NCBI RefSeq assembly: GCF_004010195.1
Contig: NC_057720.1
Location: 91,523,319-91,587,318 of the forward strand
Origin: Chiloscyllium plagiosum
Lineage: Eukaryota
DNA: 64,000 bases
Reading direction: 5' to 3'
Below the pieces are notes generated by a model. The model was given only the letters and a program-made list of their open reading frames with translations, had not been told where the DNA came from and searched no databases. Positions 1 through 58,570 of this stretch are shown in pieces. Position numbers and translations under genes: made by a program. Position 1 is the stretch's first letter. The number at the start of each line of letters is the position of its first letter.

Positions 1-299
1 CAGGTTGATGGGTGACCGTATAGAGGTTTATAAAATCATGAGGGGCATAGATAGGGTAAATAGAGAAGATCTTTTCTCCAGAGTGGGGGAGTCCAGAACT
101 GGAGGGCAGAGGTTGAAGGTGACAGGGGAAAGATTTAAAAGGGACCTAAGGGACAACGTTTTCATTCAGAGGGTGTTAAATGTATGAAATGAGCTGCCAG
201 AAGAAGTGGTGAAGGCTGGTACGATTACAACATTTAAAATGTATGGGTATGTAAATAGGAAGAGTTTAGAGGAATATGGGCATCAATCCAGCCCTTAAC

Positions 300-2140
300 A
301 TTTCAGGCTCTTCCAAAGACATTTACAGACAGTTTTGTTTGACAAACAGTCACATATGCAATGTCAGGAACGTGGCAGCCAATTTCTATGCAGCATACCA
401 GTACTTCAAGACTGTCAGGGGGCAGAGGGGAGTGTTGTGGCCATCACTAAGGAGGAGGTACTGGGGAAGCTGAAAGGTCTGAATGTGGATAACTCACCCA
501 GACTGGATGAACTACACCAGTGTGTTCTGAAGGAGATTGTTGAGGAGATTATGGAGGCATTGGTGATGATCTTTCAGGAATCAATGGAGTCGGGGTGTGG
601 AGGTGGGGTGGGGAGGGATTTGATGGGTGCAAGGGACAGGAAAATGGCTCACACTACACCCCTGTTTAAGAAAGGAGGGAGGTAGAAGATGGGACATTGC
701 AGGCCAGTTCACCTGGACTCAGTTGTTGGTAAGGTTTTAGACTTCAATTTAAGGATGAAATTGCAGAGGACCTGGAAGTGCAATGGTAAAATAGGGCTGA
801 GTCAACACGGTTTCATCAAGGGGAATTCATGCCTGGCAAAACTGTTAGAATTCTTTGAGGAGGCAATGAACCAGTCAGCCAAAGGGAAGTCAAAGGAAGT
901 AATCTATTTGGATTTTCCAGAAGGCATTTGACATAAGATAAGCGCCCATTGTGTTAGGGGCAATGCACTGGCATGGACTGAGGACTGGCAGTTTGGCATA
1001 AAGCAGACATGAGGAAAAATGGCAGCTGGTGACCGGTAGAGTTCTGCAGGCGTCAATGTTAGGACCATAACTATTCATGTTATACATTAACAATCTGGAT
1101 GAAGGAAGTGAAGACATTGTTGCTAAGTTTGCAGATGACATGAGATAGGTGGAGGGACAGGTAGTGTTGAGGAAGTGGGAAGGCTGTATAAAGTCCTGGA
1201 TAGGCTCGGAGAGTGGGCAAAGAAGAGGCAGATAGAATACAATGTGTTATAGTGTGAGGTTATGCACTTTGGGAGGAAGAAGAGATGCAAAGACTATTTT
1301 CTAAATGAAAAAAACCTTTAGAAATCTAAAGAACAAACCTCATTCAGGTTTCTCTGAAGGTTAATAGGCAGGTCCAGTTTGTGCTTGGGAAGGCAATTTT
1401 TTTTTATATTTCAAAAATATACTTTATTCATAAAATAATTTAATGGTCTGTACAATTGATCATGCCATACATATGTAAACATGTACATACAGAGATCAAA
1501 ACTTATCATTTTTATATAGGTCTGTACATTTTTTGATCATATGCCCATATAATTAGCTGAGGCGTCAGCAGAGCCCAAATGACTGCATGGGCAAACTCCA
1601 GATCATCGACTCTGAGCCAGAGTTCTTCCAGCATGCAACATTTACTCCAGACATGATCACTGGGAACCACAGTGGGGTCCACCAGTCCTATATCATGGTG
1701 AAACAACACATCAACCGACCCTCCATCCTTATTTTATTTAACTAGTATTGAATTGCTCCTTTACAATTCTAACTTGTTTTTATACATCTGCTTATGCAAA
1801 GAGTGGATGGGGATAAGATGTTTCCAAAAACAGGAGAGACTCGGTAACCAAGGCACAGCCTCAGAATGAAGGGCCGACCCTTTGGAGCTGAGATGAGGAG
1901 GAATTTCTTCAGCCAGAGGGTGGGGAATCTGTGGAACTCATTGTTACAGAGGGCAGTGGAGGCCAAGTCACTGAGTGTATTTAAGACAGAGACAGACAGG
2001 TTCATGATTGTTAAGGGGATGGAAAGTTCCTGTGGAGTCGGCAGGAGAATGGGGGTGAGAAGCATATCTGCCAAGATCAAATGGCAGAGCAGATTCCATG
2101 GGCTGAATGGCTGATTTCTGCTCCTGTTTCTTAAAGTCTT
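300..2140 (+). mobile_element. Decayed CR1-clade RT/3' fragment, interrupted at about 1397-1790
   Basis: PLFKKGGR, QHGFIKGNSCL, YLDF, KFADD and RRNFFSQRVGNLWNSL motifs. Confidence 0.8.
1397..1595 (-). mobile_element. Poly(A)-tailed 3' end of an L1/Tx1-like element
   Basis: T run at 1397-1405 followed by TTTATT (AATAAA on the minus strand) and an AT-rich 3' UTR; absent from the paralogous arm. Confidence 0.5.
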
Positions 2141-2149
2141 CTGGAGAGT

Positions 2150-5100
2150 TTCCCCAAAACCCTGGAACACTGAACCCACTGGACTGTGAACCCTGCTGTA
2201 GCTGTTTGTCATCAGAACTTTGTGAAGAGATTAGCAAAGAGTGGAGAGAATGTGCACCTATATGGGAATTTCAGGATACTTTGCAGTTCCTGGAATACAA
2301 TGAGTGTAGGAAGTGTGGTCAGTGACAGCAGTTGGAGCTCCGGGTTTCGGAGCTTTAGCAGCAGCTGGTGTCAGTGCGGAGAGTCCGTGAGGCTGAGAGC
2401 TCCATGGAGAGCACGTTTCTCGATGTGGTCACTCTGCAGCTTCAGAGTATACAGCAAGAGAGGGAATGGGGGAGCAGCAGACAGTCCAAAAGGATCAGGC
2501 AGCTAGTGCAGGAATCCCCTGAGTGCATCCCACTCTCCAACCAGGATTCAGTTTGGAATCCTGATGAGAATGATGGTTCATCTGGGGAGTGCAGCCAGAG
2601 CCAAATCCATGGCACCACGGGTGGCTCAGCTGTTCAGGGGGGCACAAGGAAGAGCGACAATGAGAGGAGATTCGAGAGTGAGGGCAATTGATAGGTGTTT
2701 GTACAGCTGCAGATGGGAATCCAGGATGGTGTGTTGTCTCCCTGGTGCCAGGGTCAAGGATGTCACTGAGCGTCTGTAGAACACTCTGAGGGGAGAGGGG
2801 GAACAGTCAGCAGTCGTGGTCCACATCATCCCCAGTGACAGAGGGAGAAAAGGGATGTGGTCCTGCAGTCAGAATTTAGAGAGCTTGTGAAGGAATTAGG
2901 AGCAGGAACTAAAAAGTAGGAATCTCCGGATTACTCCCAGTACCCCATGCAAGTGAGAATAGGAACATGACGAGAAAAGAGAGTCCAGGAGGGAGGGATT
3001 TAGATTCTTGTGACATTGGGACTGGCCCTGGGGGAGTTGGGACCTGGACAGACCAGACAGCGTTGCTCCTGAATAGAGCTGGGATTGAGTTTCTTTGGGG
3101 AGATTTGCTAGTGCTGTTGGAGAGGGTTTAAACTAACTTGGCAGGGCTGAGGGAGCCAGGGGGGAATATCAGAGAGGGCCATCAAGGTCCAAGAATCCTC
3201 AGTGCAATCAATACGGCACCACCCAGTGGGAAGGATGTGGAGGAATACACCTGCAAGTCCAAATATTATAGAGTCATTATAATGGAGTGGGGGGGCTTTA
3301 ATTTCTGAATATTGACTGGGGTAGTAGCAATGTGAAGGACAGGAAGGGGCCAGAGTTGTGAGAGTGTGTTCAGGTGAACTTTCTCCAGATGTGTGCTTCC
3401 AGTCCAATGAGAAAGAAGGCTCTGCTAGATCTGGATCTTGGGAGTGAGGAGGCCCAAGTGGATCAAGTGTCAGTGAGAGGACATTTAGGGAAGAGTGATC
3501 ATTGTATCACAAGGTTTAGGGTGATGGAGGAAATGAACAAAGGCCATTTCAGGGTCAAACAAACTCACTGGGAAAAATGGAAGCTTCCATGGCATATGGA
3601 TGTATCAGATTTAAATAAAACAGTGGAGTCACAAGTACTGGACTTATGGGGTCAAAGGTTCATAGGAAATTGTACAGCTGCAGATGGGAATCCAGGATGG
3701 TGTGTTGTCTCCCTGGTGCCAGGGTCAAGGATGTCACTGAGCGTCTGTAGAACACTCTGAGGGGAGAGGGGGAACAGTCAGCAGTCGTGGTCCACATCAT
3801 CCCCAGTGACAGAGGGAGAAAAGGGATGTGGTCCTGCAGTCAGAATTTAGAGAGCTTGTGAAGGAATTCGGAGCAGGAACTAAAAAGTAGGAATCTCCGG
3901 ATTACTCCCAGTACCCCATGCAAGTGAGAATAGGAACATGACGAGAAAAGAGAGTCCAGGAGGGAGGGATTTAGATTCTTGTGACATTGGGACTGGCCCT
4001 GGGGGAGATGGGACCTGGACAGACCAGACAGCGTTGCTCCTGAATAGAGCTGGGATTGAGTTCCTTTGGGGAGATTTGCTAGTGCTGTTGGTGAGGGTTT
4101 AAACTAACTTGGCAGGGCTGAGGGAGCCCGGGGGAATATCAGAGAGGGCCATCAAGGTCCAAGAATCCTCAGTGCAATCAATACGGCACCACCCAGTGGG
4201 AAGGATGTGGAGGAATACACCTGCAAGTCCAAATATTATAGAGTCATTATAATGGAGTGGGGGGGCTTTAATTTCTGAATATTGACTGGGGTAGTAGCAA
4301 TGTGAAGGACAGGAAGGGGCCAGAGTTGTGAGAGTGTGTTCAGGTGAACTTTCTCCAGATGTGTGCTTCCAGTCCAATGAGAAAGAAGGCTCTGCTAGAT
4401 CTGGATCTTGGGAGTGAGGAGGCCCAAGTGGATCAAGTGTCAGTGAGAGGACATTTAGGGAATAGTGATCATTGTATCACAAGGTTTAGGGTGATGGAGG
4501 AAATGAACAAAGGCCATTTCAGGGTCAAACAAACTCACTGGGAAAAATGGAAGCTTCCATGGCATATGGATGTATCAGATTTAAATAAAACAGTGGAGTC
4601 ACAAGTACTGGACTTATGGGGTCAAAGGTTCATAGGAAAGTCTGAGGTGAGCAGTAGAGGATGCAGACCAGGGATAGTCAAGGTATATTTGAGACAGGGC
4701 AAACAATTCCTGAACTCTTTTGAGGACAAAAGTGGGAGAATAATTGTAAATAAGAAAAGGGCAAAAGATAACTAGAGAGTGAATAGGGCCCCATGAAGAT
4801 GAACTAGATACCTCTGGGTGGATCCACAGAAAATGGTCAAGATCCTAAATGAATATTCTGGGTCAGTATTTATCATGGAGAAAGACATGGACGTTTGGGA
4901 ACTCGGGAAGTAAATAGTAATGTCTTGACAAGAGACCACATTACAGAAGAGGATTGCTTCAAATGCATAAAGGTAGATACATCTCCGTGACCTGATCAGA
5001 TATATCCCAGAATATTGTGGGAAGCTAGGGAAGAGATTGCTGGACTCCTTGCTGAAATATGTTTATCATCGACAGTCACAGGTAAGGTGCTGGAGAACTG

Positions 5101-5295
5101 GAGAGGTTGGCTAATGTTAGCCATTATTTAAGAAAGGCTGGAAGGAAAAGCCAGGGAACTATAGACCAGTGAGCCTGTTGTCAGTGGTGGGTAAATTGTT
5201 GGAGTGGATTCTAAGGGACAGGATTTACATGCATTTGGATAGTCAATGTGGTTTTGTGCATGGGAATTGTGTCTTACTAACTTGATTGATGATTT
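2150..5295 (+). mobile_element. Decayed CR1-clade LINE: ORF1 (zinc-finger/coiled-coil plus SGNH esterase-like) and ORF2 EN/RT remnants
   Basis: CRKC and MVCCLPGARVKDVTERL (CR1 ORF1 esterase motif), LLDLDLGS...HLGNSDH (APE C-terminus), then RT N-terminal remnants; many stops and frameshifts. Confidence 0.8.
2700..4639 (+). repeat. Near-identical tandem duplication of about 970 bp (2700-3669 and about 3671-4639)
   Basis: GTACAGCTGCAGATGGGAATCC starts at 2701 and 3672; CATAGGAAA ends at 3669 and 4639; the ORF track shows duplicated ORFs. Confidence 0.92.
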
Positions 5296-7875
5296 TGAGA
5301 TTCCCGTGTTGGACTGGGGTGTACAAAGTTAAAAATCACACAACACCAGGTTATAGTCCAACAGGTTTAATTGGAAGCACACTAGCTTTCGGAGTGACAC
5401 TCCTTCATCAGGTGGTTGTGGAGGGCTCGATCGTAACACAGAAGTTATAGCAAAAATTTGCAGAGACTCTGCAATTCCAGGTGCTTATTGAATTCAAACT
5501 CCACTATCTGTCATGCCAGGACCTGAACCCTTTCTCCCCAAAATATTACTTGGATTTTTGGATGAAAAACTACAAGGGCATTATAACCACTCAGCGGGTA
5601 CAGCAGGAGACAGATGGGAGTAGATTAGTTTGGCAGAACATTCAGCATAGATTGGTTACACTGACGGGCCTGATTCCATGCTATATGACTCTATATTTGA
5701 CGCTATGGAATAAATAGCTGGTTTGGATTAACTGCAGCACCTGATGGGATATGTAATCCTACTGGAGTCTCCGGACGTTGTTTTGCTCAGTGATTCCTTC
5801 CTACACACGGAGCTGGTGACCGGCTTGTCCCCAGTGTTACTGATTAAATGAGTTTCCATTTCTGTGGTTAATTGAATCTCTTCCTGCAGTTCCCACATTG
5901 CCCTGCTTTCTCTGCGGTATCGGTGTCCTTTTTCCAACTCAGGGTGAACGATCCTTTCAAATTGTGGCCACACAAATACAAATCCTGTTTTCCATGTTGT
6001 GAATGTGTTTTCATTCTTTCTCATTCACCCACAGGGTGTAATTATCACTGGTCAGGATAACATTTATTCTTCACCCCTTGTTCGTTGCTGACTGTCTACG
6101 CCACACACCCGGGTGCGATCCCAGCCTCGGGTCTCTATCTGTGGGCAGTCTGCACATTCGCTATGTGTTTGCGTTTTTATTTCTCCCTCATCACCAATGA
6201 TGTGCAGTTACAGGGCTCAACAATGGGAAATGCAGGTTTCTGGGATAGGGAATACCGTAGGTCCTGGTGGGATGCGTTTTGGATTGGACCATCTGGAATG
6301 GAAGGGCTGACTACCCTGCTTCCCCAAACGATGTAGATTCTTGAATTAAGCTCATGTTTTTCTGGCCCTGGAGTCTCTCGTAGGCAGGACTGGGTGAAGA
6401 TTCTGCATAAGGGACATCAATGAATGGGATTGCAGGAAATTAATGTTATTATCTATGTTCCTGAGGCCGGCTTGCATTCGGAATGTTATTCATCGAACTT
6501 AAACATCACCGTTTCCGTGTCCCAGCCCCCAAGGATAACCAGTTCTAAATATTACCCCAACACCACCTTCTCCAGGTATCAGGTTTGACTGTGTGGAAGA
6601 AACTGATTCTGAGCTGATGCAAACAAAATCAGCTTCCATCGCCAGTGTCGGAAACACAGATCCAAACAACAAAAGCATATGTTAAACCCACCACTGCAAA
6701 GCTAACGGCTCAACACGCTTCAATTGTGCCACTTAGCTGTCTCAGCAAGATGCACTATAAATAGCTATGATAGTACAAACGGGGGCAACTATTCCCTTGA
6801 TCAGGAGCACACTCAACCGAGGAATTTCTTGCTTCTATATCATCATAGAAGGACCGCACTGTCACCTATTGCATCACTGGAGCCAGAGAGTAATATCGCG
6901 CACTCATCCCATCCCCATTTCCGGTTGGATCTGGGAGGCTGTGCCGCACTTTCTCTGAATCGAGGCTGTGAACTGAGATTATGTGTGGTTTTCTGCAACA
7001 TTGGTTATGGCCTTTAGGAAGCTGGTGAAGTCGCCGATGTAAAGCTAAAATGCTACTGAAACATACATTTCAACAATATCCTGTACTGTCCCCCGAGTCT
7101 TTGATATTTTGGCGAAATCTATCAATCTCAGTTTTCAACATTCTCATTCAAGGATCTTCACAGCCTCTGAAGACATCGGATTTAAAGATTCAACTCATTC
7201 GCAGTTCCCACATGACTGCCACTCTTCGCTGAGTACTGATATTTTACATTTGCTGTTTTTCCGATCATTTCCTCTGCTAGTACACTTATTGCTGCTTGCA
7301 AGTATCCTGTTCTGTTGTTGCTGTGATCGTGGTCATCTGTATTTTGCATTGTGACCACAGCAACCTCGGTTCGAAACCATACACGACACTAAGTGTTCTC
7401 TCCGTTGTCCTTTTTGTGACACATGGTAAGAAACAGTTGTTTTACCTTCAAATTCCACTCTTTCACATCTCTGCGTTTCATATATCAGGATTCAAACACA
7501 CCCGTTGTCGGAGATTTCTCTCCTTCCCACGATCATTAATCGTCCTTTAGGTCCCTCCTCCCATTTCTCTGAGGCAATGCACAATCCATCACTCTTCTTC
7601 ACATTGATACTGTACTGTCTGTCCTGCGGTCACTGTTGCTGGGTGAACGTGCCGCAATCCCACCATTGGGATCTCCAAACAAGTCGATCCATTTGATCCA
7701 GTAACAGTGTGGACTCTCCCTCTTTATGGGCATTTAAGAGGGCATTGGATAGGTATATGGAGGATAGTGGGTTAGTGTAGTTTAGGTGGGCTTGGATCGG
7801 CGCAACATCGAGGGCCCAAGGGCCTGTACTGCGCTGTATTCTTCTATGTTCTATGTTCTATGAAGAAAGTCACAG

Positions 7876-8045
7876 ATCACACAACAGCAAGTTATAGTTC
7901 AGCACTAGCTTTTGGAGCGCCGCTGACAGCCACCTGATGAAGGAGGGGCGCTCCGAAAGCCAGTGCTTCCAAATAAACCCCCTGTTGGACTATAACCTGT
8001 GTGATTTTTAACTTTGCCTACCCCAGTCAAACACCGGCACCTCGA
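7876..8045 (+). mobile_element. Penelope-like repeat with a short inverted 5' part and hammerhead-like core
   Basis: CTGATGAAGGAGGGGCGCTCCGAAA at 7934-7958 followed by AATAAAC...GTTGGACTATAACC; paralogue at about 23245-23415; related copies at about 5300-5480 (-), 35722-35850 (-), 46383-46470 (+) and 51712-51817 (+). Confidence 0.65.
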
Positions 8046-8890
8046 AGTCTTTGGAGAAGGCTGAGAGGAGAATTGTTCCAGAATTCAAAATCAGGAGGGG
8101 CCTGGACAGAGTAAATAGGGAGAAAGTGATCGCACTTCTGAAAGGATTGAGACCGAGAGACCACAAATTGAAAGTAATTGGGAAATAACAAAAGTGAGAT
8201 GAGGAAAAACGTTTTAGACCAGCGAGTGGTTAAGGTGTGGAATGCACTGCCTGAGAGTGTGGTGGAGGCAGCTTCAATTGAAACATTCCGAAGGGAATGA
8301 GACTGTTATTTGAAAAGGAACAATGTGCAGGGTGACAGGGAGAAGGCAGGAGAATGACACTCAGTGAATTGCTCATTCAGAGAGCCAGTCCAGACAGGAT
8401 GGGCAGAATGGCCTCCTTGTGCGTTGTAACAACTCTGTGATTGTGTGATTGAGCAGAGTTAAGGCTGGGGGAGGTGGGAGCTCGGTGTCTCACTGTGCTG
8501 CCGCTGCTGCTGCTGCTGAGGTCAGTGAGATCAGAGACTGGGACAGGGAGCCAGAGCTCACATCAAACTCTGCCCATGTCCGTCACACTGAGACTGGCAG
8601 GAGGCTACTCACTGATTTCACTCCATGCTGCAGGAATGGGACCACAGGCTGCAAATGGACAGAGCTCCTCCACACGGTGAGTAAAACTGACTGACTTATA
8701 TCTAGCTTTTTAAAGGGGGCAATAGAACTGAAGAAATACAGCTGGACATCCTGTTAGACACAGTGTCCACAATCAACCATTTCATTCACTGCAGCTCCCC
8801 ACTAACACCTTCAACAATTCAGTATTTGTGTTTTAGAAATTGTCTTTAGAAATTGAAAGGGTTAATAACGGAGGATTGAGGTTTACTTAC

Positions 8891-9225
8891 TCAGTTTGAG
8901 CTTGGTTCCTTTACCGAACGTAAACGTTTAGGGTAGCTGTTACATTGCTGACAGTAATAGTCAGCGACATCCTCATTCTGAACGTTGCTGATTTTCAGGG
9001 TGGAACTGGTCCCTGATCCACTGCCGGTGAATCGCTCGGAGACTCCTGTGAATCGAGTTGCTGCATTGAAGATCAGGAGAGAAGGTTCCTGACCTTCTCG
9101 CTGCTGGTACCAAACAAGGACATTGCTAATGCTTTGACTGGCCACACAGATGATGGTTGCGGTCTGGCCCAGTCCCACTGACAGCACCGGGGGAGACTGG
9201 ATGATGATGATGTCCCCACTGATAC
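8891..9225 (-). pseudogene. IGKV: Pre-joined V-J exon of a kappa-type light chain, out of frame at the junction
   Basis: Encodes GISG-DIIIIQSPPVLSVGLGQTATIICVASQSISNVLVWYQQREGQEPSLLIF...FTGSGSGTSSTLKISNVQNEDVADYYCQQCNSYP (both Cys, WYQQ and DYYC present). J (ACG TTC GGT AAA GGA ACC AAG CTC AAA CTG A|gtaagt = TFGKGTKLKL) follows with no RSS in between. The 8 nt between CCT and ACG put J out of frame, and the V frame stops at TGA 8893-8891. Confidence 0.92.
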
Positions 9226-9411
9226 CTGAGGGGTCAGAGAGAAACACAGTGAAGTCAGAACTGTCACAGAAAGAGCCTGTCAAATGAGAGATTGTTGGAG
9301 ACACTGAGCACTCCTCTGGTTTCAACATTTTCCCTTCAATCACAAGTCAGTGGAATTGGAGTGAAATGGAGAGCAGCTAAAGATTCAAGGTGGAAGGAGA
9401 GAGATTTGTAC

Positions 9412-9460
9412 CTGTGATGCAGAATGCCAGGGGCAAGATCAGCTGGATGTGTGAAATCAT
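9412..9460 (-). CDS. IGKV: Ig kappa-type (shark type III/NS4-like) light-chain leader exon L1, MISHIQLILPLAFCIT(G)
   Basis: ATG at 9460-9458; 49-nt exon (16 codons + 1) encoding a hydrophobic signal peptide; GT donor at 9411-9410; AG acceptor at 9227-9226 gives the usual phase-1 L1/L2 split (G|GT ATC AGT GGG GAC ATC). Confidence 0.93.
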
Positions 9461-9520
9461 GGTGTGTGCTCCTGTCCCTGTGCCTGGTTCCTGATAAACT
9501 CTCCCTTCACTGGGCTCTGC

Positions 9521-9617
9521 TTTATAAAGCTGCAGCCTGTGAGAGTCTGACTGGATGTTCCTCAGTATGTAAATGGCATCAGGCAGAGAGAGCCACATCA
9601 ACCCTTCACACTTCCTC
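9521..9617 (-). promoter_or_regulatory. V-gene promoter: TATA-like box, variant octamer and PU box
   Basis: TTTATAAA at 9521-9528, about 60 bp upstream of the ATG; ATTTACAT (minus strand, 9574-9567), one mismatch from the Ig octamer ATTTGCAT at the expected spacing; GAGGAAGTG (minus strand, 9617-9609); a (CT)n tract follows. Confidence 0.75.
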
Positions 9618-33999: not shown

Positions 34000-34327
34000 G
34001 CCGTGAGAACTCTCAGCCAAGCTGATCCTGCTGCCTCCCTCCCCGGAGCAGGTCAATGCCAAGGGCACTGCCACCCTGGTGTGCCTTGCCAATCACTTCT
34101 ATCCTGATGAGCTGGAGGTGTAGTGGAAGAAGGACGGTGCAGTCATTTCGGACGGGGTTCAGACCAGCAACTACCTGCGAGCTTCGGACAGCACCTACAG
34201 TGTCAGCAGCCTGCTGACCCTCTCTGGGTCTGACTGGGAATCCAACGCTCGTTTCTCCTGTGCCCTCACCCACGTGACTCTCCCCTCTCCCCTCAGCAAG
34301 AGCATCAGGAGATCAGAATGTGTGTAG
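34000..34327 (+). pseudogene. IGKC: Kappa-type light-chain constant exon, pseudogene
   Basis: Acceptor ttcag|G at 33999/34000; high similarity to the intact copy at 55083-54755; 1-bp deletion (CAGCCCAAG>CAGCCAAG, about 34017) and CAG>TAG at 34121-34123; ends in ...RSECV TAG at 34325-34327; AATAAA at 34576-34581. Confidence 0.93.
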
Positions 34328-34575
34328 TGTTGGAGACAGTCCACAAAGGAGACACAACTTTAAATAGAACAGGGCTGAGCTGGCAGGACAAAGGTCATTG
34401 TCAGCACTGAATTTCAACTCTCTTCCTTCTCAGGATTGCTCAGAGAACCTTCTGAGGTTTGCATGTTAAAGCAGGTCAATGTGACAGTGTCAAGAGAGCT
34501 TTATGCTATGTCAAACCTCATGCTGTTCTTGTCCTGGGAGTGTTTGATGAGGGTCAGTGTTGACTTGTAATGTCA

Positions 34576-54100: not shown

Positions 54101-54754
54101 TTCTCCCCCTCATTCTCCAGCCTTGAGGGTGGAGGTTAACACTTCACACACCCTTTCCCTGAGGCTTCAGCTCTGGCCATTCCCAAAGCACACAGAGACA
54201 GAGACCGAATATTATTCATTTTAATTTCCTTTTCCAGATTGACATTGACAGAAAACAGTCAGCAATTAACAGCCCAGACAGAGGAAGCTGCACAAATTCA
54301 CAGCCACAATGTAGCTTGAGGAAAACACTTGTGGAGATTTTCTCAAAAAAAAAAGAGAATCCTGTCCCTTTAAACAGTGACAAAACCTTAAATTGGAACT
54401 GGCAGCTGAGCAGGAAGGAGATCTGGTTTACTGAAACAGAGACTTCTGAGGTTCACAATGTTTAGTACAGCTGACAGTTTTCAGCATCTTCGAGAGGTTT
54501 TACTTGACATCACAAGTCATCACTGCGCCAATCAAACACTCCCAGAACAGGGACAGCATGTGGTTTGATACAGAGTAAAGCCTCTTTTTAATGATCCCAA
54601 TGACCTGTCTTAACCCTTGGACATCAGATGTGTCTCTGAGCCAGTCCTGAGAAGGAAGAGAGTTGAAATTCAGTGCTGACAATAATCTTTGCCCTGCCAG
54701 CTCAGCCCTGTTCTATTTAAAGTTGTGTCTCCTCTGTGGACTGTCTCCAACACT

Positions 54755-55083
54755 CTACACACATTCTGATCTCCTGATGCTCTTGCTGAGGGGAGAGGAG
54801 AGGGTCACGTGGGTGAGGGCACAGGAGAAGCGAGTGTTGGACTCCCAGTCAGACCCAGAGAGGGTCAGCAGGCTGCTGACACTGTAGGTGCTGTCCGAAG
54901 CTCGCAGGTAGTTGCTGGTCTGAACCCCGTCCGAAATGACTGCACCGTCCTTCTTCCACTGCACCTCCAGCTCATCGGGATAGAAGTGATTGGCAAGGCA
55001 CATCAGTGTGGCAGTGCCCTTGGCATTGACCTGCTCCGGAGAGGGGGGCAGCAGGGTCAGCTTGGGCTGAGAGTTTTGACCAT
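54755..55083 (-). CDS. IGKC: Kappa-type (NS4-like) light-chain constant exon, intact reading frame
   Basis: Polypyrimidine tract plus AG at 55085-55084, phase-1 start. Encodes (x)GQNSQPKLTLLPPSPEQVNAKGTATLMCLANHFYPDELEVQWKKDG...DSTYSVSSLLTLSGSDWESNTRFSCALTHVTLSSPLSKSIRRSECV*, a C1-set domain with the penultimate inter-chain Cys. Confidence 0.95.
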
Positions 55084-56839: not shown

Positions 56840-58570
56840 GAAAGGAAATGCAGGGGGATAGAGGGTCAAGTGTGAAGGAGGAACTAAAGGTAATCCTTGT
56901 TAGTCAGGAAATGGTCTTGGGGAGACTGATGGTATCAAAACTTAATATGTCCCCAGGGCCTGATACTCTGCATCCCAGAGTCCTTAAGAAAGTGGGTGGA
57001 AAAATAGTGGACACATTGGTGATCATTTTCCAACATTCTGTCGACTCTGACAGAGTTCCAATGGACTGGACAGTATCCAATGTAACCCCCCTTTTTAATA
57101 AAAGGAAGGAGAGTGAAAATGAGGAATTATACAGGAGGAAAACGCTGGAGTCAGTTATTAAAGATACAATAACTAAGCATTTGGAAAGCAGTGACAGGAT
57201 CGGTCCAAGTCAGCATGGATTTACGAAAGGGAAATCAGGCCTGACACATCTTCTGGAAGGTTTTGAGGATGTGATCAGTTGAGAGTGGACACGGTTGAAT
57301 CAGTGGACAACAAAAACAAAAATTAATGAAAGTTTTCGGCCGATCTGGCAATATCTGTGGAGAGCAATCAAAGTTAACGTTTCGGATTGACTGACCCTCC
57401 CTCAGAACTCAGTGGGTGTTGTGTATCTGGACTTTCAAAAGGCTTTTGACAAAGTCCTATACGATAGGTTAGTGAGCAAAAGTAAACCTTATGGTATTGG
57501 AGGTAATGTATTGACATGGAGAGAGAACTCGTTGCCAAATAGAAAGCAGAGAGTTGGAATAAATGGGTCCTTCTCAGAGTGGCAGGCAGTGATGAATGGG
57601 GTACCGCAGGGTTCAGTGCTGGGACCCCAGCTGTTCACAATATACATAAATGATATGGACAAAGGAATTGAATGCAATCCCTTCAAATTTGCAGATGACA
57701 CGAAGCTGGGTGACAGTGTGTGCTGTGAGGAGGATGCTAAGAGGCTGCAGGGTTACTTGGACAGGCTGGCTAAGTGAACAAATGCTTGGCAAATGCAATA
57801 TAATGTGGGTAAATGTGAGATTATCCACTTTGCTGGTAAACGGGAAGTCAGATTATTAGTGAATGGTGAAAGTTTAGGAAAAGGTGAGGTGCAATGAGGG
57901 CTGGGTGTCATGGTGGAACAGTCACTGAAAGGGGGCATGCAGGTGCAGCAGGCAGTGAGGAAAGCTAATGGCATGGTGGCCTTCACAGTGAGAGGATTTG
58001 TGTATTGGAGTAAGGATGTCTTGCAGAATTATACAGGGCCTTGGTGAGGCCTCACCTTGAGTATTGTGTGCAGTTTTGGTCTCCTAGTCTGATGAAGGAC
58101 ATTCTTGCTATTGAGGGAGTCGAGCGAAGGTTCACCAGACTGATTCCTGGGACAGCAGGACTGACGTATGAGGAAAGACTGGATCGAATGGGTTTGTATT
58201 CTCTGGGATTTAGAAGAATGAGGGGAATCTCTTGGAAACATGTAAAATCCGGATGGGATTTGACAGTGTCAATGCTGGAAGAATGTTCTCGATATTAAAA
58301 AGTCCAGAATTAGGGGTCACAGTCTAAGATTAAGTTATTCAGATGTTGTGAACCAGTGGAATTCTCTACCACAGAAAACCGGTGGGGCCAGTTTGTTTGT
58401 TATATACAAGGGGGACTGGGCCCTTGAGGCTGAAGGGATTTATGGGTATAGGGGGAGAGTGGTAATGGGATACTAAGATTGCATAATCAGCCATGATCAT
58501 ATTGAATTGCGGTGCAGGCTCAAAGGGTTGAATGGCCTATTCCTGCAGCAATTTTCTATGTTTCTACGTT
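56840..58570 (+). mobile_element. CR1-clade RT/3' fragment with a Penelope-like insert of about 100 bp (57307-57408)
   Basis: YLDFQKAFDKV, GVPQGSVLGP, KFADD and VRPHLEYCVQFWSP motifs; TCAGTGG flanks the insert at 57300-57306 and 57409-57415. Confidence 0.82.

Follow-up and report, generated by a model that had tools for sequence, protein, structure and literature searches.

A probably germline-joined kappa light-chain gene with putative P nucleotides at its V-J junction in the bamboo shark Chiloscyllium plagiosum

How did the V and J segments of an immunoglobulin light-chain gene come to lie fused in the assembled genome of Chiloscyllium plagiosum, and do the four letters between them record the opening of a hairpin? 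The gene lies in a stretch of 64,000 nucleotides, here called the window, and had been noticed for a palindrome at its V-J junction. P nucleotides are left when a hairpin made by RAG is opened off its tip, and are described as occurring only on untrimmed ends (PMC2193153). Papers are cited here by PMC number.

The minus strand of the window carries a complete Ig light-chain unit with a single V, a single J and a single C in the same orientation (Table 1), and its sequence places this unit among the shark Ig kappa (NS4, type III) clusters. The top PDB matches for the V include kappa light chains, and the leader intron has the same length as that of nurse shark NS4 (PMC2193156). The RSS layout typical of kappa, a 12-spacer after V and a 23-spacer before J, was seen in the nearest unrearranged relative and in other split units. 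A C exon inside the window, 97.5% identical (DNA) to the joined cluster's own C, was 94-97% identical to kappa-like chains from C. punctatum and Hemiscyllium ocellatum and 93% to a nurse shark light chain. The V-protein search gave no ortholog of the V, the matches being three unnamed C. punctatum proteins (74-79%). Promoter decay was ruled out; the octamer-like motif was also found in 18 of the 22 joined and 14 of the 18 split units where it was located, and this non-canonical octamer is the usual form across the kappa family and no lesion. The gene is not a retrocopy, as both the leader intron and the J-C intron are present.

Table 1. Features of the joined kappa cluster. Positions are those of the window unless a contig is given.
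Feature	Position	Strand	Remarks
Octamer-like promoter motif ATTTACAT	9567..9574	-	One letter off the canonical octamer
TATA-like box TATAAA	9521..9526	-	Identified by sequence
Leader exon	9412..9460	-	ATG at 9460; 49 nt; GT donor next
Leader intron	9226..9411	-	186 nt
Kappa V segment	8930..9225	-	Open frame; Pfam V-set E 2.6e-13
V 3' end	up to 8930	-	Trimmed by 3 nt relative to the sister V; by 4 if T8930 is counted as P
Putative P nucleotides AAAC	8926..8929	-	Reverse complement of the first four bases of J
Kappa J, untrimmed	8891..8925	-	G TTT ACG TTC GGT ..., FTFGKGTKLKL; out of frame with V
Premature stop TGA in V frame	8891..8893	-	Final three bases of the VJ exon
J-C intron	1..8890	-	GTAAGT donor 8890-8885; extends beyond the window start
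Kappa C exon, intact	G000:C11:91521316-91521570	-	Pfam match; ~10.6 kb from J, just outside the window

Past the Cys codon, which ends at 8951, the minus strand reads CAGCAATGTAACAGCTACCCT-AAAC-GTTTACG-TTCGGTAAAGG. V and J are fused without an RSS, as the original prediction had it: no heptamer/nonamer pair was found between or near them, and an RSS scan of the window gave a single weak match, at 57290. The perfect ten-base palindrome that had been reported, TAAACGTTTA (TAAAC|GTTTA), is present at 8921-8930 with its axis between 8926 and 8925, and the junction also contains a direct repeat, ACGTT occurring twice. The distance from Cys to Phe is 32 nt, which confirms the loss of frame between V and J. 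Translated in the V frame, the joint continues to ...QQCNSYPKRLRSVKEPSSN and a stop, which is the last codon of the exon. An out-of-frame joint with a stop at the exon end allows no light chain to be made, and the gene lacks the in-frame VJ of the functional neonatal pre-joined light chains such as R4 and R18. A VpreB-like role was considered for the predicted V-only peptide and set aside, since the peptide is without the FGXG strand.

By itself the palindrome is weak evidence. The window contains 54 ten-base palindromes (0.00084 per base), and the chance of finding one in a 55-nt stretch is ~4-5%. It rises above chance because its axis sits exactly at the heptamer border of the J in the nearest unrearranged relative, a split cluster on contig C99929 that is ~4% diverged from the window cluster. 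The V of C99929 ends in CCCTCTA, followed by CACAGTG, a 12-nt spacer and ACAAAAACC. Its J is preceded by GGTTTTTGT, a 23-nt spacer and CACTGTG, and starts with GTTTACG (GTTTACGTTCGG) directly after this heptamer; 463 nt separate V and J. In the alignment C99929:24635 corresponds to 8925. The original prediction had put the palindrome axis at a plausible J start and had proposed that a germline J begins GTTTACG right after the heptamer, and C99929 bears out both. It had also named a germline V or J already containing AAAC as grounds for rejection, and neither end of C99929 contains AAAC.

C99929 was sister to the window cluster with support 100/99 in a tree of 40 of the 54 kappa units that we collected (14 short or gapped rows dropped; bootstrap not fully settled). 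The two clusters have derived sites in common on the V side (6) and on the J side (3; J-side FastTree value 0.855), and V and J of the joined gene are therefore likely to come from one cluster. In raw identity the J side is slightly closer to the joined unit L080 (96.1%) than to C99929 (95.5%). A J start of GTTTACG is rare, with 2 of 26 split Js in one count and 2 of 29 in another, most Js starting GCTTAC. All other J starts mismatch the J of the window and explain at most two of the P letters. J was found to start 7 nt before the Phe codon in six split loci of the 30 loci fetched; for the 26 Js, which were collected by pattern, this spacing was built into the pattern. Because the true parent is lost and C99929 is a paralog 4% away, its ends serve as a proxy only.

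Compared with C99929, the joint is best fitted by a V lacking 3 nt, P nucleotides AAAC, an untrimmed J and zero N nucleotides, which leaves no base unexplained and agrees with the predicted absence of N nucleotides. The four letters absent from V and J are the reverse complement of the start of the sister J, a match that random letters would give once in 256. As T8930 is assignable to either V or P, the number of P nucleotides is 4 or 5; with a lost parent V that had CCCTA at its end, like the distant split V of L074, it would be 3. The best-fitting structure would thus be a V trimmed by 3-4 nt, joined through 4 (3-5) probable P nucleotides to a J that kept its full end. As in a RAG joint, RSS and spacer are gone, the J end is exact and the V end lies 3-4 nt short relative to C99929. 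As in P addition, AAAC mirrors GTTT on an untrimmed end, with the parental ends taken from the 4%-diverged sister. The window joint is the sole one among 26 joints in this genome that requires P.

The claim that hairpin opening by RAG gave the P nucleotides stands as far as the hairpin is concerned, which RAG makes, but the opener is normally Artemis. For Artemis:DNA-PKcs, opening at a distance of 1-4 nt from the hairpin tip is described, with 2 nt as the main position (PMC2175297). Among joins of wild-type mouse ES cells 5 of 50 contained P, which was at most 2 nt long; it was 1-7 nt in cells without Artemis, whose joints were marked by long P together with large deletions (PMC2193825). The P addition had been called longer than usual at 4-5 nt. 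It is long; however, given where Artemis opens hairpins, 4 nt still counts as normal, at the upper limit, and the length varies from 3 to 5 with the parent assumed and with the assignment of T8930.

Fused V and J segments could also stem from a somatic rearrangement in a single B cell of the sequenced tissue that entered the assembly. The junction occurs there just once and was absent from the contigs listed for the public runs, which would suit such an origin, as would two tandem substitutions on the window lineage, in leader (9419-9418) and V (9145-9144). Tandem substitutions are of a type typical of shark hypermutation (PMC5931798). The leader exon was found to have changed by 8% on the window lineage (4/49), with the same letters also present in 2-3 paralogs. 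The tandem changes and the more changed leader exon point away from a germline origin. Against this, changes on the window lineage were equally dense upstream of the TATA box (21/794, 2.6%) and in V (7/275, 2.5%), so the pattern expected of hypermutation is not fitted. If the joint were that of a B cell, the split form of the locus should dominate the assembly, and erythrocyte or other body DNA should provide it. No split version of the locus was found in the assembly, the best other matches to V and to the J flank being 96% identical with 40 candidates scored in each search (40 of 92 in a search of the own genome that gave 51 matches, and 40 of 1732 in a second DNA search). A 29-nt CDR1 signature occurred in the assembly only at the window locus and in C99929. 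The divergence of the latter from the window locus is 3-5% in V, in the J-C intron and in the DNA both upstream and far upstream, and 1.6% in the leader intron; identity is ~95% near the gene and falls to 83-92% further upstream. This divergence rules out C99929 as the unrearranged allele and makes it a paralog. The joint lies within an N-free stretch (1-21775) on a 94.7-Mb contig. It contains zero N nucleotides, whereas shark somatic joints mostly contain N or P, as described for TCR alpha (PMC5931798) and NS4 cDNA (PMC2193156). A somatic origin is therefore considered very unlikely. With no split allele in the assembly and change that is not focused on V, the joint is probably of germline origin, and the idea of a RAG event fixed in the germ line gains support from assembly and evolutionary comparison.

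The junction was not seen in the public runs among the contigs listed. Of 24 runs, 19 contain 0.33-0.42 of the words sampled and five almost none of them; none reaches half. When runs X20, X21, X22 and X15 were aligned to 8300-9600, hardly any DNA covered the joint, and X15 looks like RNA, the leader intron being spliced out. In runs X1, X2, X3 and X5 (DNA, four organisms), searched with 8876-8975, the pieces mostly end at the J or V border and several continue into the RSS; none bridges the joint among the 25 of 61 records listed. A gap in read contigs at the joint proves nothing. Two further ideas were set aside. Relaxed selection on V was suggested by 7 nonsynonymous and 0 synonymous changes on the window lineage, where the sister had 2 and 3 (p = 0.045, Fisher), in a test that is hand-classified, post hoc and weak. 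For a re-inserted excision circle, the exact signal-joint pattern gave 0 matches in a search that is weak in allowing no mismatches.

The origin of AAAC itself could also be explained in other ways. In a germline RAG joint these letters could be N nucleotides, or could stem from a small duplication or insertion after the joining, and be palindromic by chance. The ACGTT repeat at the junction would suit this reading, joined copies have mutated after joining, and ten-base palindromes are not rare. However, random letters would seldom match the J start (see above), a duplication starting from the common 25-nt joint needs two more changes and must recreate the rare J start of the sister by chance, and each of the other 25 joints needs at most one unexplained base under a lenient fit. 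We regard this origin of AAAC as very improbable. Templated insertions formed by fold-back also yield short inverted repeats. A non-RAG break, or a RAG break repaired with a polymerase-theta-type fold-back, could thus have deleted the spacer and copied the J end back. The loss of an entire J in another unit, L026, and the association of long P and large deletions with joints made without Artemis (PMC2193825) might be read in the same direction. But both ends of the window joint lie at or within 4 nt of heptamer borders, the axis of symmetry coincides exactly with the J border, which is what a RAG hairpin would give, and a 4-nt P requires nothing outside normal Artemis opening. Such a break is the explanation to which we give the least credence, and it is very improbable. 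A RAG hairpin joint that was held in the germ line and inherited as a pseudogene is very probably what the locus contains.

For this RAG hairpin joint the following course of events may be proposed. The parent would have been a split cluster like C99929, with a 12-spacer RSS after V and a 23-spacer RSS before J, ~460 nt apart. RAG-initiated V(D)J joining in a germ cell or early embryo would have cut at both heptamers and removed the intervening DNA, the coding ends being sealed as hairpins. The J hairpin was then presumably opened at a point 4 (3-5) nt from its tip, Artemis:DNA-PKcs being the most likely enzyme, and the opened flap would have been retained and filled in as AAAC. The comparison with C99929, in which V appears to have lost 3-4 nt, J none, and no N was added, fits end joining without TdT, perhaps aided by one shared T. 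The joined copy, unable to make a light chain, would then have been inherited and have drifted since.

We collected 54 V-anchored kappa units from the genome (loci L001-L030, L051-L090 and L123-L150). Of these, 26 were joined, 26 split and 2 aberrant; since the first query was a joined gene, the sample is biased and is no census. The joints were nearly N-free, with at most one unexplained base in each of the 26 under the lenient fit. By an exact-match count 11 of the 26 contained microhomologies of 1-3 shared bases, a count disturbed by later mutations. Only five joints were in frame. One wrong frame was common to 15, and these are not independent because 12 of them have a similar 25-nt joint. 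The tree needed nine changes between joined and split, at least six of them forced by well-supported branches, and several joined genes were sister to a split one, often a few percent away. The V frame was intact in 7 of 23 joined vs 15 of 20 split units in a rough test (43 of 52 rows). L081 (G000:C32379) and L084 (G000:C78265) have the same in-frame 27-nt junction with differing V sequences and represent a joined gene that was duplicated after joining.

Two units stand out. In L026 (G000:C97370:10785-11163) the V end CCCCCTA is followed by TA and then by the J-C intron, the whole J being lost; TA is possibly a 2-nt P, and the unit resembles a joint in which the deletion ran deep. In L028 (G000:C91733:4668-5022) the V stops after CAGCAGTAT, where a GA-rich repeat takes over. 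The break carries a ten-base palindrome, CAGTATACTG, and a complete split V-J lies ~2.4 kb further on.

Six germline-joined NS4 genes, R4, R7, R18, RE18, R6 and R19, were described in the nurse shark (Lee, Fitch, Flajnik, Hsu 2000; PMC2193156). At least five joining events were inferred, with trimmed ends, what may be a P of 2 nt and few traces of TdT; the joined genes were estimated at ~10% of NS4 genes, four of the six were in frame, and they were present in several animals. RAG activity in shark germ cells was there inferred and not observed. These findings are repeated in reviews (PMC5192425; PMC4279169; PMC2435157). The window joint agrees with the nurse shark genes in isotype, in the 186-nt leader intron, in the V-J spacer of ~500 nt in split genes, in joined genes being closest to split ones, in the complete loss of the RSS, in trimmed ends, in the presence of P with little sign of TdT and in several independent events. 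It differs in that the clearest nurse shark P is 2 nt on the V end, where a blunt join is also possible, whereas here the J end would bear 4 (3-5) nt, which a blunt join does not explain. In the biased sample from this genome 26 of 54 units were joined and 5 of 26 were in frame, as against ~10% and four of six. Inheritance was demonstrated in several nurse sharks, whereas the window joint is known from the assembly alone.

The inverted repeat on an untrimmed end resembles mammalian Artemis:DNA-PKcs joints, in which as many as 4 P nucleotides can result from opening between +1 and +4 (PMC2175297). The window joint is at the upper edge of this range and is carried by the genome, not by one lymphocyte. 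Other germline-joined genes described in cartilaginous fish comprise all lambda (NS3), one sigma-2 (NS5), IgM1gj and partly joined IgH (PMC5192425; PMC4279169; PMC2193153). Like these genes, the window gene would have its V(D)J pre-assembled in the inherited genome, which is attributed to RAG in germ cells; several of those genes are in frame and expressed in pups, whereas the window gene makes no chain. A longer P region in a joined NS5 gene is said to have been reported by Fleurant in 2004 or in reviews by Hsu. No paper on kappa joints of bamboo sharks was found in our literature search, most subscription papers being outside its coverage.

The window joint is already explained. It is very probably a clean example of a germline-joined kappa gene, a kind known since the nurse shark work of 2000, and leaves the accepted picture unchanged. 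What it adds concerns the hairpin step, which sets RAG joining apart from ordinary deletion: a 4-nt P at the border of the sister J would be cleaner evidence of V(D)J chemistry altering inherited shark DNA than the nurse shark's 2-nt P, for which a blunt join is the alternative. The wider kappa sample weighs more than the single joint. Since many kappa clusters are joined, mostly out of frame and nearly without N, the sample suggests that germline kappa joining is frequent here, mostly destructive and not selected for neonatal antibodies. A bolder reading, which we hold to be possible but rather doubtful, is that germline RAG, far from causing an occasional mishap, is a recurring, unselected mutagen of the kappa locus that acts with altered hairpin opening. 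About half of the clusters would have been joined in at least six events, without TdT, often at short microhomologies and with no selection for frame. If so, the 4-5-nt P of the window joint and L026, with its P-like bases and lost J, would indicate weak or altered Artemis in germ cells, and germ-cell end joining could be read from the assembly like a fossil record.

The surroundings of the gene are also rich in kappa sequences. Along G000:C11:91.52-91.68 Mb (window position -2000 to ~157000) kappa clusters alternate in orientation, with C exons spaced at ~20-35 kb. Four V-J pairs are readable there, three of them joined; the only split J has a damaged heptamer. Within the window, C exons lie at 34017-34335 (plus strand), with a TAG stop, and at 54745-55068 (minus strand), intact; no V or J was readable within the window for either. 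From 22805 on, directly behind N stretches, J-flank sequence is found again. Apparently fused VJ was also seen in kappa models of Hemiscyllium ocellatum and Chiloscyllium punctatum (P0002, P0004, P0006 and P0008), which are automatic models. The P0002 model ends in LRSVKEP, the same wrong frame as that of the window joint.
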